DNA from: an uncultured Gemmatimonadales bacterium
Lineage (GTDB): Bacteria; Gemmatimonadota; Gemmatimonadetes; Longimicrobiales; RSA9
Reading direction: 5' to 3'
Assembly: GCA_963783305.1 (NCBI GenBank)
Contig: CAWAMW010000007.1
Coordinates: forward strand, 480,001 to 544,000
DNA length: 64,000 nt
Shown: positions 21,446 to 25,744 of the stretch, piece after piece
Position numbering within the stretch: position 1 is the stretch's first letter
Layout: each line of letters opens with the position of its first letter
Notes under the pieces: model-generated
The model's database searches: none
What the model saw: the letters and a program-made list of their open reading frames with translations, nothing else
Told to the model about the DNA's origin: nothing
Made by a program: the position numbers and the translations under genes

Positions 21446-23800
21446 CTACTCGTCCCGACGAGTCGCCGCGTAGAACGTAGTGCCGCCATAGCGCCGACTC
21501 CGCATCATCAGTTGCGCTGATTGCGGTGCGATCTCTGCCGCGGTAGCCAGGAGCGCGCTCGCAGTCGATCGCTCGCCGAGGGCGGTGTGGACCCAGGCGC
21601 GCAGCGTGAGGAGGTCCACGCTCTGCGTGCCCTTCACGCTCGTCGCCCGCAGGACCTGACGCGCCGCTCCCGTGGCGCCCGCTCGCGCCAGCACCACCGC
21701 GTGTAGCAGGCGCAGCCGCGACTCGACGTCCGTGGGGGCTCCGTACACGCCGAGCTTGCCCAGCCCCTCCTGGAGAAGCCGATCGGCCTCCTCCACGGTC
21801 CACGGACCTACCCACGCGAGGCGCGTGAGAGAGCAGTAGGCGCCCAGCCAGTCGTCCGGCTGCTGGCGCTCGATCTCCGCGCACCACTCTACCGCTCCCT
21901 CCTCGTCACCCACCTCCAGTGCGTTTGTGAACAACCGCACCAGGATCTCCAATGAGGCCGTCAGCGCGTAATCGGTCGCGTACGCCTGCCGCGCCCGGTG
22001 GTACGCTTCCGCGAAATCGCCTCGCTGCTCCGACATGGCACTCAGGATGCTCCACGCCCGGGGGAGTCCCGGGTCCCGCTTCACGGCCGCGGCGAGATCC
22101 CGCTCCGCCACCTCCATGGACGCACCCTCCATCCCCGTCTGCGCCGCCCAGTACCGCAGCACCCCCCGCACCTCCAGCCCGCGGGCGCTTTGCGACGCCA
22201 CGTTCAGCCCGGTCTCCGCGTGGGCCAGCCCCCGCAGGATCGCCCCGTGCGCCAGTTCCAGGTCGTCATTCGGCGGGATCAGCGGCAGCCACATGAAATC
22301 CACCGCCAGCTGCGCACGCCGGAACGTCGGCTCCGGCCAGTCCGGATCCAGCTCCTGCGCCCGCGCCAGCAGCGAATCCGCGGCGGCGTACGCGCGCTCG
22401 GCCGCTTCCACCGCGCCCCGCACCCGCAGTCGGTCGCCCGCGCTCCACTCGGCCGCCGCGTCCCGAACTCCGCTGAGCGCGTCCGGCGCGATTCCGAGCT
22501 CCGTCAGCCCTTTGAGCGAGAAGAAGGAGCCCGCCTGATGCCGGATCCTCGGCGAAATCCGCCCCACCAGCGCCTCCGGTGTCGCCGACTCGCCTTCCGG
22601 TGTCCGAATCATCACCCGGTCGAGCACGACACCGGACGACGCGTCGAGCAGGAGCACCGAGAAGCGCACCGTCCCCTCCTCCATCCGCAACGTGGGGCGG
22701 AGCCGCACTCCCTCCAGGTCCGAGCCCCCGCCATCCACGGCGTTCAGCGCGACGACCCGGAACCCGTTCCCCTCGCTCAAGCGCGCGGCGAGCTCGGCCG
22801 TCACCGCACCGGCCACACCCTTCGTCATGGCGGCGCTTTCCCCCACGTCCCGCACCGGCTCCAGCACCAACGTCCGGGAGAATCGGTCCGAAGCGTCCTC
22901 CGCCTGCACACCCGCCATGGATCGCGACCGCAGCGACCAGAGCGTCACCGATGTGACCAGCAGCACGGCCGCCGCCGCCGCCCACCACACGCGTCGTCGG
23001 CGCCCCTCCGCCGGGGCCGCGTCCGGCCGCCCCACGAGGGGAGCCACAACAGAGTCCGGCGCTTCGCTGGGCGCCTGAACCGCCACCGGCGCCTCTACCT
23101 CCAGAACCGCCTGGGTCGCGGCCGATGGCTCCACCCCGTGGATTTCCTTCATGTGCGCCGCGAACTCGTCGTACGCTGCCTTCGCCCCCGCTCTGTCACC
23201 GGTGCGGACCAGCACCCCCAGCAGTTCCTGCAGCGCCGGCTCTCCACGAATGCCGATCTCCCACGCCCGTCGGGCGGCAGCACCCGCCGCCACTCGGTTC
23301 CCCGCCGACTCCTCCGACCGCGCCACCCGGTGCGCCGCGTCCGCCGCCACAGACTGGATTCGCCGACGCGATCTCTCCAGCCAATCCTCGAACGGCTGCG
23401 GCGCCCCGTCCAGGTGGAACCCCGGCAGCAACTCACCCTGATACAGCTCCACTACCGCGCCCCAACGCTCCTCTTCCGCCGCGCGCAGCAGTTCCGACAC
23501 GTCGCACGACAGCTTCCCTTCAGCCACGCCGATCCCTTCGGATCCCTTGCCCGCGATCGCACCCGGGCCCAGCGACCGCCGCAGATAGTGCAGCGCCTGC
23601 CGCAGCGCGCTTCGGGCACGGTCCTCCTCGAACTCCGGCCAGAGCAGCCCGAGAACCTCGTCCCGCTGGAGTCGCCGCGGACTCTCCAGCGCCAGCAGCG
23701 CCAGCAGCGCGAGCCGCTTGGGCTGGCTCATCACCGAGTCTATGCGCCGCCCATCCGGACCGCGCAGATCCACCGCACCAAGCACTCGGAACGTGAACAT
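21446..23800 (-). CDS. Membrane-anchored SARP/AfsR-like regulator: wHTH + BTAD, one TM helix, external TolB-N-like and TPR region
   Basis: QPKRLALLALL, RDEVLGLLWPE, LRQALHYLRR, LYQGELLPGF and FEDWLE; TM WWAAAAAVLLVTSVTLWSL; TPR-like DPDWPEP and DPGLPRAWSIL. Confidence 0.85.
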   Translation of the reverse strand: MFTFRVLGAVDLRGPDGRRIDSVMSQPKRLALLALLALESPRRLQRDEVLGLLWPEFEEDRARSALRQALHYLRRSLGPGAIAGKGSEGIGVAEGKLSCDVSELLRAAEEERWGAVVELYQGELLPGFHLDGAPQPFEDWLERSRRRIQSVAADAAHRVARSEESAGNRVAAGAAARRAWEIGIRGEPALQELLGVLVRTGDRAGAKAAYDEFAAHMKEIHGVEPSAATQAVLEVEAPVAVQAPSEAPDSVVAPLVGRPDAAPAEGRRRRVWWAAAAAVLLVTSVTLWSLRSRSMAGVQAEDASDRFSRTLVLEPVRDVGESAAMTKGVAGAVTAELAARLSEGNGFRVVALNAVDGGGSDLEGVRLRPTLRMEEGTVRFSVLLLDASSGVVLDRVMIRTPEGESATPEALVGRISPRIRHQAGSFFSLKGLTELGIAPDALSGVRDAAAEWSAGDRLRVRGAVEAAERAYAAADSLLARAQELDPDWPEPTFRRAQLAVDFMWLPLIPPNDDLELAHGAILRGLAHAETGLNVASQSARGLEVRGVLRYWAAQTGMEGASMEVAERDLAAAVKRDPGLPRAWSILSAMSEQRGDFAEAYHRARQAYATDYALTASLEILVRLFTNALEVGDEEGAVEWCAEIERQQPDDWLGAYCSLTRLAWVGPWTVEEADRLLQEGLGKLGVYGAPTDVESRLRLLHAVVLARAGATGAARQVLRATSVKGTQSVDLLTLRAWVHTALGERSTASALLATAAEIAPQSAQLMMRSRRYGGTTFYAATRRDE

Positions 23801-23829
23801 CCTACCCCCTGGAGAGCCCGGATGGCTGC

Positions 23830-23874
23830 CGTTACCTGCCAGGTAACGCTCAGGTTACGGCCGCATGCTACCCT
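23830..23874 (+). promoter_or_regulatory. Putative SARP binding site plus extended -10 promoter
   Basis: CAGGTAACG(23840-23848) and CAGGTTACG(23851-23859) are 11 bp apart; CGTTACCTG(23830-23838) is the inverse of the first; TGcTACCCT at 23866-23874. Confidence 0.6.
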
Positions 23875-24007
23875 TCTCACCGGACATTGGATCGGGACGC
23901 CTCCGGTACGCCGGGAGACGGAGCCATACCCCCGGATGCTACCGTTCCTCGACCGGGCCAACAAGCCATCGAGTCCACCTGCCTTGCGCAGTGGACAGGA
24001 GAATTCC

Positions 24008-24172
24008 GTGACTGAGTCCTCCAGGAAGGCCAGGACCATGCTTGAGGCCCTGTTGTTCGTATGCATCGGGGCGGGCGCGCAGGGATGCACCGGGAGCCCC
24101 ACGGCTCCAGCGGACGACAATGGTCGCATCTGTTACTGGATCTACGGCACTCTGCATTGCCTGGAAGACTGA
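24008..24172 (+). CDS. 54-aa putative lipopeptide with a C-terminal Cys-X8-Cys loop
   Basis: AGGAG 6 nt before GTG; MTESSRKARTMLEALLFVCIGAGAQG-CTGSPTAPADDNGRICYWIYGTLHCLED. Confidence 0.65.
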   Translation: MTESSRKARTMLEALLFVCIGAGAQGCTGSPTAPADDNGRICYWIYGTLHCLED

Positions 24173-24328
24173 CCTGCCGTCACCGTCGCGTAGCTTGCAG
24201 GGGGTTGGCTGCGTTGATGGTGGCGGTACGGTTGGTCCCACTCCTGAGCCGCTCCCATCGGTACGTTGGCCTGGATTTCGCAGCCCTCCTCGGTAGCTTC
24301 GCTCGATCCAGCCACCACAGGAGAACGC

Positions 24329-24451
24329 ATGTCGAAAGAGCTCCGGATCCTGGCGCTGACCGCCGCCGCCCTCCTCGCCGCCCGCGTACTCGTGCTCGCC
24401 ATTGATCAGGCCGTCAATGGCTGGCGCCGTCACCAGCTCTACCAGGACTGA
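24329..24451 (+). CDS. 40-aa single-TM small protein
   Basis: CAGGAG RBS; MSKELRILALTAAALLAARVLVLAIDQAVNGWRRHQLYQD; codon usage like the host genes. Confidence 0.55.
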   Translation: MSKELRILALTAAALLAARVLVLAIDQAVNGWRRHQLYQD

Positions 24452-24511
24452 GTCCGCCCCGTACCGCCGCGCCTTCTGGCCCGGCCTGCTGCGCACACGT
24501 ACCATTCCCCC

Positions 24512-25744
24512 ATGGACCAGTCCAATGTGCTCGCCATCGTCCTTGCGGGCGGTGAAGGGAAGCGACTCCAGCCGCTCACCCGGGACCGCGCCAAGCCGGC
24601 GGTCCCCTTCGGCGGGTCCTATCGCCTCATCGATTTCGCGCTGACGAATCTCGCCCACGGCGGCTACCTCCGCATCGTAGTCCTGACCCAGTACAAGAGC
24701 CACAGTCTCGATGTGCACCTGGCCAAGACGTGGCGTATGGCCCCCATCCTCGGGAACTACGTGATCTCGGTTCCCGCCCAGATGCGCGAGGGCCCCCGAT
24801 GGTTCGCGGGCTCCGCCGACGCCATCTACCAGAACCTGAACCTCCTGCGGGACGAGCGACCCCAGTACGTCATGGTGGTCGGCGCCGACCATATCTATCG
24901 CATGGACCCCCGGCAGCTCGTTCAGCAGCACATCGACAGCGGTGCCAATGTGACGGTCGCGGGCATCCGCGTGCCCCTCGACCAGGCACCGCAGTTCGGG
25001 GTGATCGAGGCGGGCGCTGATGGCGTCATCGAGCGGTTCCGGGAGAAGCCGACCGACGCCCGCGGTCTCCCAGACGCTCCCGACCAGGTGTACGCGTCCA
25101 TGGGCAACTATGTGTTCACCACCCGCGCCCTCATGGAGGCCGTGACCGCGGACGCCGTGCTGGACGATTCACGACATGATATCGGGGCCGATATCATCCC
25201 TCGATTCGTGGACGATGGTACCGCGCACGTATACGACTTCTCCGAGAACGAAGTCCCCGGCGCCACCCCGAGGGACCGTGCCTACTGGCGCGATGTCGGG
25301 ACGCTCGACTCCTACTACGACGCGCACATGGACCTCGTGTCCGTGGACCCCATCTTCAACCTGTATAACCGACAGTGGCCGATCCTGACGGCCCACGATC
25401 CGATGCCCCCGGCCAAATTCGTCTTCTCCGACTCCGGCCGCACCGGGCATGCCCTCGATGCCATCGTCTCCGCCGGAGTCGTCATATCCGGCGGAGAGGT
25501 CCGGCGCTCCGTCCTGTCGCCCAGCGTTCATGTCCACTCCTACGCCGACATCGACGGCTGCGTGCTCATGCAGAACGTGGACGTTGGACGCCACGCCGTG
25601 GTCAGGAATGCCATCATCGACAAGAACGTGCGGATCCCGCCGGGAGCAGAAATCGGCGTGGATCCCGAGGCCGATCGCGCCCGGTTCCATATCACGGAGC
25701 AGGGAATTGTGGTGATCGGAAAGGACCAGCAGATCGCGCCGTGA
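24512..25744 (+). CDS. glgC: Glucose-1-phosphate adenylyltransferase
   Basis: [46 protein letters not shown] and YWRDVGT motifs. Confidence 0.97.

Follow-up and report, generated by a model that had tools for sequence, protein, structure and literature searches.

In a 64,000-nucleotide stretch of DNA from an uncultured Gemmatimonadales bacterium (positions 480,001 to 544,000 of contig CAWAMW010000007.1, assembly GCA_963783305.1; hereafter the window), two genes lie head-to-head, 207 bp apart. One encodes a 784-aa regulator predicted to span the membrane once, with a DNA-binding head of the SARP type inside and a TPR superhelix outside, and the other encodes a 54-aa putative lipoprotein that ends in a Cys loop (Table 1). 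The source assembly (G000) consists of 17 contigs and 4.35 Mb with a G+C content of 69%, and database relatives are labelled Gemmatimonadota or Longimicrobiales. In this report, we describe the two genes and their relatives, and we consider it slightly more probable than not that the regulator and the lipoprotein form a cognate pair, in which the hairpin of the lipoprotein would dock in the periplasmic TPR groove and set the activity of the SARP head.

The 784-aa protein contains a BTAD (PF03704) that scores 23.3 bits against the Pfam cut-off of 22.1 (27-66 bits in the neighbour-linked homologues), and Trans_reg_C reaches 21.3 bits, under its cut-off of 26.2. The AlphaFold2 model, built on 13 homologues, has a mean predicted local distance difference test score (pLDDT) of 81.5 and a predicted TM-score (pTM) of 0.60. 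In a Foldseek comparison, the N-terminal ~250 residues matched the SARP domain of AfsR (8k60_J and 8hvr_I; 25% identity, TM-score 0.63-0.65 on the target, E 5e-7 to 1e-6), as well as EmbR (2fez). Judged by its model, the protein has the features of the SARP family, namely the BTAD, an OmpR-type winged helix and the overall SARP fold. The remainder of the regulator matched TPR superhelices in Foldseek, the Pfam TPR signal being weak in this copy, and the solenoid (residues 408-767) is all-helical in the model. A disordered stretch lies between the BTAD and the helix at residues 276-294, with model confidence below 50 across residues 238-306. The sequence holds a single strongly hydrophobic span, RRRR-VWWAAAAAVLLVTSVTLWS, whose best 19-residue Kyte-Doolittle window lies at residue 271 and which lines up across all 13 homologues. 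As the N-terminal head has to contact DNA, a periplasmic location is predicted for the last ~490 residues, and since the TPR region is C-terminal to the single transmembrane helix, it would be extracytoplasmic; the predicted topology is therefore ToxR-like, with a cytoplasmic DNA-binding N-terminus, one transmembrane helix and a periplasmic C-terminus. Two cysteines of the outer domain, Cys640 (21881-21883) and Cys656 (21833-21835), are invariant in two alignments (13/13 and 9/9 sequences), which fits a periplasmic location; periplasmic cysteine pairs are also present in ToxR, TcpP and CadC. The architecture read from the letters in a first-pass annotation of this DNA, a winged helix with a BTAD, one transmembrane helix and an outer TPR region, was thus recovered by Pfam, AlphaFold2, Foldseek and hydropathy, the hydrophobic span included. 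The closest database homologues of the regulator (P0049-P0056) are 44-74% identical to it; one of them, P0051 (58% identical), and the class-2 protein P0076 (class 2 is described below) are both listed with a longest contig of 4725 bases and may lie on one contig. One homologue (P0067) carries the JGI name 'TolB-like', and a scan of metagenomes with the lone regulator sequence returned 59 pattern matches and no relative.

The 54-aa open reading frame (ORF) has a GTG start with GGAG 6 nt upstream, and in the public protein collection it appears as a 44-aa protein called from the ATG of position 24038 (P0027). We prefer the 54-aa reading because homologues align upstream of this ATG and because the lipobox needs the GTG start: the closest relative, P0175 (59% identical, lipobox AGAQGC, loop CYWINGTLHC), aligns upstream of ATG 24038, and the lipobox rule is satisfied with the GTG start only. 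This PROSITE-type rule places a Cys at positions 15-35, with an uncharged stretch before it and Lys or Arg near the N-terminus. It is obeyed by the ORF itself (Cys27), by 45 of 46 database members and by 121 of the 130 short family representatives described below, and the product is predicted to be lipidated at Cys27. The ratio of nonsynonymous to synonymous substitution rates (dN/dS; Nei-Gojobori, three pairs) was 0.29-0.43 in the signal peptide and 0.22-0.45 in the mature part, which indicates that selection on the ORF is purifying, and on these sequence grounds we regard it as a real gene. The ribosome-binding site, the lipobox (GAQG-C), the SPTAP linker and the terminal Cys loop noticed in the first-pass annotation are all present and belong to a conserved family. 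The remark made there that the ORF is not called separately is true of the program-made ORF list, because the frame stays open antisense to the regulator, and is not true of the public collection, which has the 44-aa call. The antisense frame (724 codons, 21998-24172, plus strand), which fuses with that of the small gene, is a high-G+C artefact.

Table 1. Coordinates of the regulator-lipoprotein locus in the window and of related genes at other loci (locus or contig handle: positions)
Feature	Position	Strand	Basis
Regulator gene, 784 aa, predicted single-pass membrane protein of SARP type	21446..23800	-	ORF; Pfam BTAD; AlphaFold2 model; Foldseek to AfsR, EmbR
Winged-helix DNA-binding domain, aa 1-110, predicted cytoplasmic	23471..23800	-	AlphaFold2; Trans_reg_C below cut-off; Foldseek to AfsR
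BTAD helical domain, aa 113-234	23099..23464	-	Pfam PF03704; AlphaFold2 model
Predicted transmembrane helix, aa 276-294, RRRR before it	22919..22975	-	Hydropathy; low-pLDDT model helix; 13/13 homologues
Outer alpha/beta domain, aa 310-401	22598..22873	-	AlphaFold2 model
Outer TPR-like superhelix, aa 408-767, predicted hairpin docking site	21500..22579	-	AlphaFold2; Foldseek; predicted interface
Block conserved with G005, tandem heptamers GGCTGCC-gtt-ACCTGCC, candidate operator	23824..23848	.	Heptamers 10 bp apart, overlap palindrome
Second block conserved with G005 (GATGCTACCG)	23934..23943	.	65 nt upstream of small-ORF start
Class-1 Cys-loop lipoprotein precursor gene, 54 aa	24008..24172	+	GTG start; stop 24170-24172; sequence and homologue searches
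Predicted lipoprotein signal peptide, aa 1-26, with lipobox Cys27 (GAQG-C27)	24008..24088	+	Lipobox pattern; homologues share ...AGAQGC or ...VQGC
Linker TGSPTAPADDNGRI, aa 28-41, contains SPTAP	24089..24130	+	Sequence
Loop C42-YWIYGTLH-C51 and tail LED, predicted beta-hairpin and TPR-groove ligand	24131..24169	+	Family motif; predicted interface 39-54
Class-2 genes	L219:134-346, L080:1498-1719, L211:3601-3855, L210:3531-3842, L212:867-1175		
G000 outer-TPR paralogues without SARP head or hairpin partner (L223-L225)	C16:675888-677030, C15:414312-415460, C16:373328-374542		
Small GerE/LuxR-type genes	L084:1132-1908, L088:1676-2113, L090:7205-7768, L091:1414-1848, L093:7332-7766, L097:1258-1758		
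G014 Peptidase_C1 genes	L084:4675-5703, L081:4700-5719, L081:11618-12763, L085:297-1316, L085:7343-8356		

When 60 relatives were searched in six frames with the 54-aa sequence, the four top matches other than the ORF itself (E 1e-4 to 0.02) all proved to adjoin regulator homologues and to share one layout: a lipoprotein signal peptide, a short linker of Pro, Thr, Asp and Glu, and a C-terminal C-x-W-[IL]-x-G-x-x-x-C. A GGAG-type ribosome-binding site precedes most copies of this family, which we call class 1. Profile searches of a 5.8-billion protein collection returned 47 proteins, all named 'hypothetical' and none with a Pfam domain, and an exhaustive HMMER search of 1.84 billion representatives yielded 138 clusters at E≤0.001, of which 130 have representatives no longer than 110 aa. 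Among these short representatives, 123 have a C-x8-C loop, 121 the lipobox pattern and 114 both, and two loops are present in 12; the linkers are mostly 14-19 aa long. The loops themselves are almost all different (134 of 135 are distinct), with the consensus C-[VYIT]-[WLI]-[IV]-[ND]-G-[VQ]-[LWI]-[VHY]-C, which is typical of a beta-hairpin that turns at N/D-G. Within one subfamily (26 members), pairwise identity was 91% in the signal peptides and 40% in the loop interiors, and such diverse loops behind conserved signal peptides fit pair-specific recognition. Neither class 1 nor the second precursor class described below reached any cut-off in Pfam or NCBIfam, and the best score in the ESM Atlas was 0.78, a lead only. 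Tandem double Cys hairpins were seen in four precursors (L060:1357-1614, L062:1486-1746, L074:988-1191 and L218:43-186), and one genome, G014, has at least six copies of the class-1 gene.

Linkage of the two genes was assessed by two independent whole-genome searches of 73 same-family genomes, one with the small-ORF profile and one with the outer domain alone, whose results were cross-matched and whose sequences were read. The genome-search tallies take in seven genomes flagged as unpublished (G020, G021, G024, G038, G085, G152 and G260), and no locus-level claim rests on these. The outer domain alone was found at 87 places in 51 genomes (E≤1e-10). At the 21 places where it matched at E≤1e-30, a Cys-loop gene lies beside it in 20, with gaps of about 30-320 bp between the alignment ends; two regulators share one Cys-loop gene, and the orthologue in G005, the closest to that of the window (49-61% identical), is split across two contigs. 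The one exception, G082:C36, has no SARP head. A partner gene was also present at no fewer than 7 of the remaining 66 places. Starting from the small gene, 22 of the 26 evaluable class-1 genes adjoin a regulator (28 were listed, one of them at a contig start and one not inspected), as do all five class-2 genes, and six-frame searches of whole genomes placed a regulator match within 1.5 kb at 16 of 18 distinct loci with a true Cys-loop ORF. A conserved small ORF with a lipobox and a Cys loop is thus found beside homologous regulators, as the first-pass annotation had anticipated for their flanks. The head-to-head arrangement on which that annotation built does occur in the window and is a minority layout of the family, seen only in G000, G005, G068 and G164, the last of which belongs to another family than the genome of the window. 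The commonest layout is tail-to-tail, just past the regulator 3' end, and two loci are co-directional; together, about 20 loci have the small gene tail-to-tail or co-directional at the regulator 3' end. The linkage is seen whether the two genes are convergent, co-directional or divergent, and it is therefore not the product of a single common promoter. Among 401 genomes drawn from the whole phylum, matches that reach the loop were found only in G000, G066 and G164. At G036:C191, one single-loop gene lies between two regulator genes.

The linkage follows the outer domain. Among 80 metagenomic loci with homologous SARP heads, neither the outer domain (0/80) nor the small ORF (0/80) was present. 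The outer-domain relatives that have no partner form a separate clade (support 96/98), made up of G082:C36 and three G000 paralogues; they lack a BTAD, and one is a Ser/Thr kinase, a type of fusion of the outer domain that also occurs in the database. The class of the partner likewise agrees with the outer-domain tree, in which the class-2-linked regulators form one clade (97/97, 4 rows). The tree holds 24 of the 25 intended rows, G080:C225 having been dropped at the blastp step.

Class 2 comprises the partners of five regulators that adjoin, in place of a class-1 lipoprotein, a protein of 71-104 aa without a signal peptide. These proteins consist of a conserved N-terminal domain of ~45 residues, a low-complexity linker and a C-terminal loop of the form C-Y-x-[VI]-N-G-V-[IV]-[VI]-C-P, and the database holds 72 of them, all hypothetical and none with a family match. 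In the AlphaFold2 model, the N-terminal domain and the terminal hairpin have a pLDDT of about 90 and the linker is disordered; neither Foldseek (E≤0.001) nor VIA (Z≥2) found a match to the model. A leader-like domain with a C-terminal core recalls the precursors of ribosomally synthesized and post-translationally modified peptides, yet the adjacent modifying enzyme or peptidase-transporter that defines such precursors was not found beside class 2 in the four neighbourhoods scanned. Three genomes (G036, G069 and G008) have both classes, each gene beside its own regulator. Class 2 was not found in the 401 phylum-wide genomes, a sample that lacked all five known carriers, so this blank shows little. 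Because two unrelated N-terminal modules bear the same loop, the loop appears to be the shared functional unit and the N-terminal parts alternative delivery modules.

Structure prediction of the TPR region with the C-terminal part of the peptide, proposed in the first-pass annotation, also points to an association. With the outer domain (residues 292-784) and residues 25-54 of the small protein as input, each with an alignment, the complex scored 0.62 (runs 0.53, 0.71 and 0.62), and the best of three controls scored 0.01. The pass mark is reached by 116 of 157 solved complexes and by 2 of 215 mismatched pairs, counts that hold only roughly here because our own alignments were used. The runs agreed in at least 44% of contacts, and the pLDDT of the partner was at least 49. 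In the predicted interface, residues 39-54 of the small protein face TPR residues 456-764, which line the solenoid, and the prediction supports binding of the hairpin to the outer domain. The predicted contact residues are more variable than the other TPR residues (2.24 vs 1.94 bits; 98.9% of random sets are no higher), which fits pair specificity. The proposal that the outer TPR region and the Cys-loop peptide belong together is therefore upheld in silico by the linkage at 20 of 21 places, by the phylogeny and by the complex score. Of the outcomes that the annotation had named as refuting it, none was seen among those examined: small ORFs are conserved beside homologous regulators, selection on the ORF is purifying, and the regulator has a predicted transmembrane span.

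Our data suggest a model whereby the mature 28-residue product would be lipid-anchored at Cys27 and face the periplasm, with a Cys42-Cys51 disulfide closing a beta-hairpin around its Y/N/D-G turn. The hairpin would bind the regulator in cis as a tethered co-sensor, much as ToxS and VtrC serve ToxR and VtrA, or as RcsF and NlpE serve the sensors of their own systems, a role that the lipid anchor favours. Docking would set the output of the cytoplasmic SARP head, which would act on transcription from the membrane, and changes in the availability of the hairpin may alter transcription; the disulfide redox state, lipoprotein sorting and proteolysis are candidate inputs. Several points weigh against this model. 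The membrane topology is predicted from hydropathy and the positive-inside rule alone, and the complex score expresses the confidence of a model, not a measured quantity; since many solved structures are TPR-peptide complexes, a generic likeness may contribute to that score, and the fold of the hairpin partner is uncertain (pLDDT about 50). Surface exposure could explain the variability of the contact residues equally well, and positive selection in the mature part was not seen in the three pairs compared by dN/dS. No regulator lies near four of the class-1 genes (G066:C6, G094:C6, G014:C3:7184 and G014:C17:313464). The lipobox pattern is present in none of the 72 class-2 proteins, and neither an exporter nor a maturase was found beside class 2 in four neighbourhoods, which leaves the route of its loop to a periplasmic domain unexplained. 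A papain-family Peptidase_C1 gene begins 8-25 bp after each of five Cys-loop lipoprotein genes of G014. Finally, no RNA runs containing the locus were found, and only two DNA runs, both from one study, contain it.

The intergenic region of the window contains two blocks conserved with G005, the first of which includes tandem heptamers that are compatible with SARP-type sites as described in the available text of a SARP review (PMC10972967). [quoted passage not shown] One occurrence of the heptamer pattern was counted in the window where 0.34 would be expected, a number that 28 of 100 shuffles reach and that is not significant alone. A scan of G000 for the intergenic 15-mer with up to two mismatches found eight sites and no clear regulon, and neither a sigma-70-like promoter nor an intrinsic terminator was found in 23700-24600. 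In the window, the lipoprotein gene is the sole gene divergent from the regulator. In 6 of 10 loci scanned, a gene with a GerE/LuxR-type helix-turn-helix lies head-to-head with the regulator, and these genes are likely candidates for direct targets in the other loci, which would give a two-step transcription cascade.

Three other readings of the pair were weighed against the tethered co-sensor. The first-pass annotation envisaged an autoinducing circuit, in which a diffusing hairpin or fragment, whether from the lipoprotein or from class 2, would be sensed by the TPR region and the SARP head would activate the peptide gene, as in pherotype-specific quorum sensing. Much of the family could be read in this way: the conserved leader and variable core resemble pheromone precursors (91% vs 40% identity, almost every loop distinct), class 2 resembles a leader-plus-core precursor, several pairs occur per genome, the genes of four genomes (G000, G005, G068 and G164) are head-to-head, tandem heptamers are kept in the shared intergenic region of G000 and G005, and the complex prediction fits a diffusing ligand as well as a tethered one. 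Nevertheless, we consider such a circuit unlikely. The lipobox predicts a lipid-anchored product, and neither class has a conserved processing protease or exporter beside it in the neighbourhoods scanned, where no opp-type genes were seen either; the papain-like gene of G014 encodes no signal peptide, and nothing matching it was found in the genome of the window. About 20 loci are tail-to-tail, so that a shared promoter is not general, and the gene head-to-head with the regulator is of the GerE type in 6 of 10 loci. Activation of the peptide gene by the SARP head is thus not supported, its layout being confined to those four genomes, and the same is true of a quorum-type system, given the predicted tether and the lack of a conserved exporter or protease nearby.

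The lipoprotein gene might instead be no more than a target of the regulator, or one of several, comparable to afsS under AfsR, with an envelope role unrelated to sensing and no contact between the two products. Small adjacent genes are classic for SARPs, an AfsR site lies at the afsS promoter (PMC10972967, available text), and the window itself shows the head-to-head layout with a conserved intergenic block. Most loci are, however, convergent at the regulator 3' end, an unusual spot for a target promoter; the linkage tracks the outer domain and not the SARP head, the partner class tracks the outer-domain phylogeny, and the complex prediction passes, all of which make a target without contact quite improbable in our estimate. 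A role elsewhere, in which the Cys-loop peptides would be inhibitors or substrates of papain-family peptidases or antimicrobial or toxin-like products that the regulator controls or confers immunity to, draws on the five tandems in G014 and on the hypervariable loops. We give this very little credence: the peptidase stands beside the small ORF in one genome only, without a signal peptide and without a match in G000, lipid-anchored 28-residue products would make poor diffusible toxins, and the linkage to one outer-domain clade is left unexplained. The papain-family peptidase had also been considered as a general part of the system and was dropped, since the window's genome yielded no match to it and the single translated copy (L084) bears no signal peptide.

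Closest in topology and logic appear to be the co-component transmembrane regulators ToxR/ToxS and VtrA/VtrC. These, like TcpP/TcpH and CadC, combine a cytoplasmic N-terminal winged helix, one membrane helix and a periplasmic sensor, and in ToxR/ToxS and VtrA/VtrC a small partner gene adjoins the regulator gene, as it does here. According to the available part of one report, a small, fast-evolving periplasmic partner is encoded beside ToxR/VtrA-type regulators (PMC9214523). The module in the window differs in having a SARP head (winged helix and BTAD) and a sensor made of an alpha/beta domain and a ~360-residue TPR superhelix. VtrC and ToxS are membrane-anchored lipocalin-like barrels, whereas the partner here is a predicted 28-residue lipoprotein ending in a hairpin, and the overlapping genes of one operon in the ToxR/ToxS group contrast with pair genes that are mostly convergent. 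The known systems come from enteric Proteobacteria and the present module from Gemmatimonadota. As neither the lipocalin-like barrel partner nor the overlapping co-directional gene is found, we regard the module as an analogue of a co-component pair that lies outside that superfamily. RcsF (for IgaA/RcsC) and NlpE (for CpxA) are small lipoproteins that report the state of the envelope by direct periplasmic contact. The lipoprotein described here is likewise predicted to contact an inner-membrane signalling protein; RcsF and NlpE, on the other hand, are folded domains of 100-200 residues, their genes are unlinked to those of their sensors, and their output is a phosphorelay instead of a membrane-bound transcription factor.

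The RRNPP receptors of Bacillota (Rap-Phr, PlcR-PapR, NprR-NprX, Rgg-SHP and PrgX) offer a second comparison, in that a TPR superhelix is predicted to enclose a cognate peptide encoded next to it, and receptor and peptide diversify as pairs. These receptors are cytoplasmic, and their peptide is re-imported through Opp. Here, in contrast, the TPR region is predicted to lie outside the membrane and the peptide to be lipid-tethered, the DNA-binding head is of another type, and no processing or import genes are linked; the module thus lacks the cytoplasmic TPR receptor and re-imported peptide of RRNPP systems. We can imagine an extracytoplasmic counterpart of RRNPP, in which disulfide-stapled ten-residue hairpins, lipid-anchored or leader-delivered, would be pair-specific signals read at the surface by single-pass SARP-TPR receptors that act on transcription from the membrane and would serve kin or cell-contact recognition or quorum sensing through several orthogonal pairs per genome, although we hold this extension to be doubtful. 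Among SARPs, the winged helix and BTAD share the fold of AfsR and EmbR (8k60, 8hvr and 2fez). A TPR domain is also found at the C-terminus of large SARPs, and AfsR regulates a small gene next to its own; the SARP classes covered by the available text of the review (small, medium, large and SARP-LAL) are all cytoplasmic, and the word 'transmembrane' occurs there 0 times (PMC10972967). The regulator of the window differs from AfsR in having no NB-ARC domain, a predicted extracytoplasmic TPR region and a small neighbour predicted to be an exported lipoprotein. The available main text of a survey of transmembrane transcription regulators contains none of the terms BTAD, SARP, TPR and lipoprotein (PMC10269533), and no published description of a SARP-TPR receptor/hairpin-lipoprotein module was found in the literature.

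The analysis defines two new small-protein families, class 1 with 138 representative clusters and class 2 with 72 proteins, and suggests that membrane-spanning sensor forms of SARPs, which textbooks present as cytoplasmic activators of antibiotic genes, exist outside Actinomycetota. To our knowledge, nearly all membrane-bound one-component regulators known to have a small periplasmic partner come from enteric pathogens, and all known peptide-binding TPR receptors are cytoplasmic proteins of Firmicutes. The module would unite both ideas, with a SARP head, an outer TPR receptor and a minimal hairpin ligand, in a little-studied, mostly uncultured soil phylum. If the predicted binding is true, it would constitute a very compact and probably orthogonal surface-sensing transcription switch with its specificity in about eight residues, useful for studies of receptor-ligand co-diversification and for synthetic biology.

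In the window, the pair is flanked by rph and rdgB on one side (ORF translations and synteny) and by glgC on the other (Pfam). Between the small gene and glgC there is a 40-aa ORF (24329-24451, plus strand) that has a GGAG site and encodes one hydrophobic helix; it has no counterpart near glgC in same-genus loci and may not be a gene. Hybrid histidine kinases (HisKA-HATPase-REC) adjoin the pair in G005 (L052:1251-2651), G032 (L082:56-1567) and G030 (L093:2590-4440), and in the window their position is occupied by glgC.

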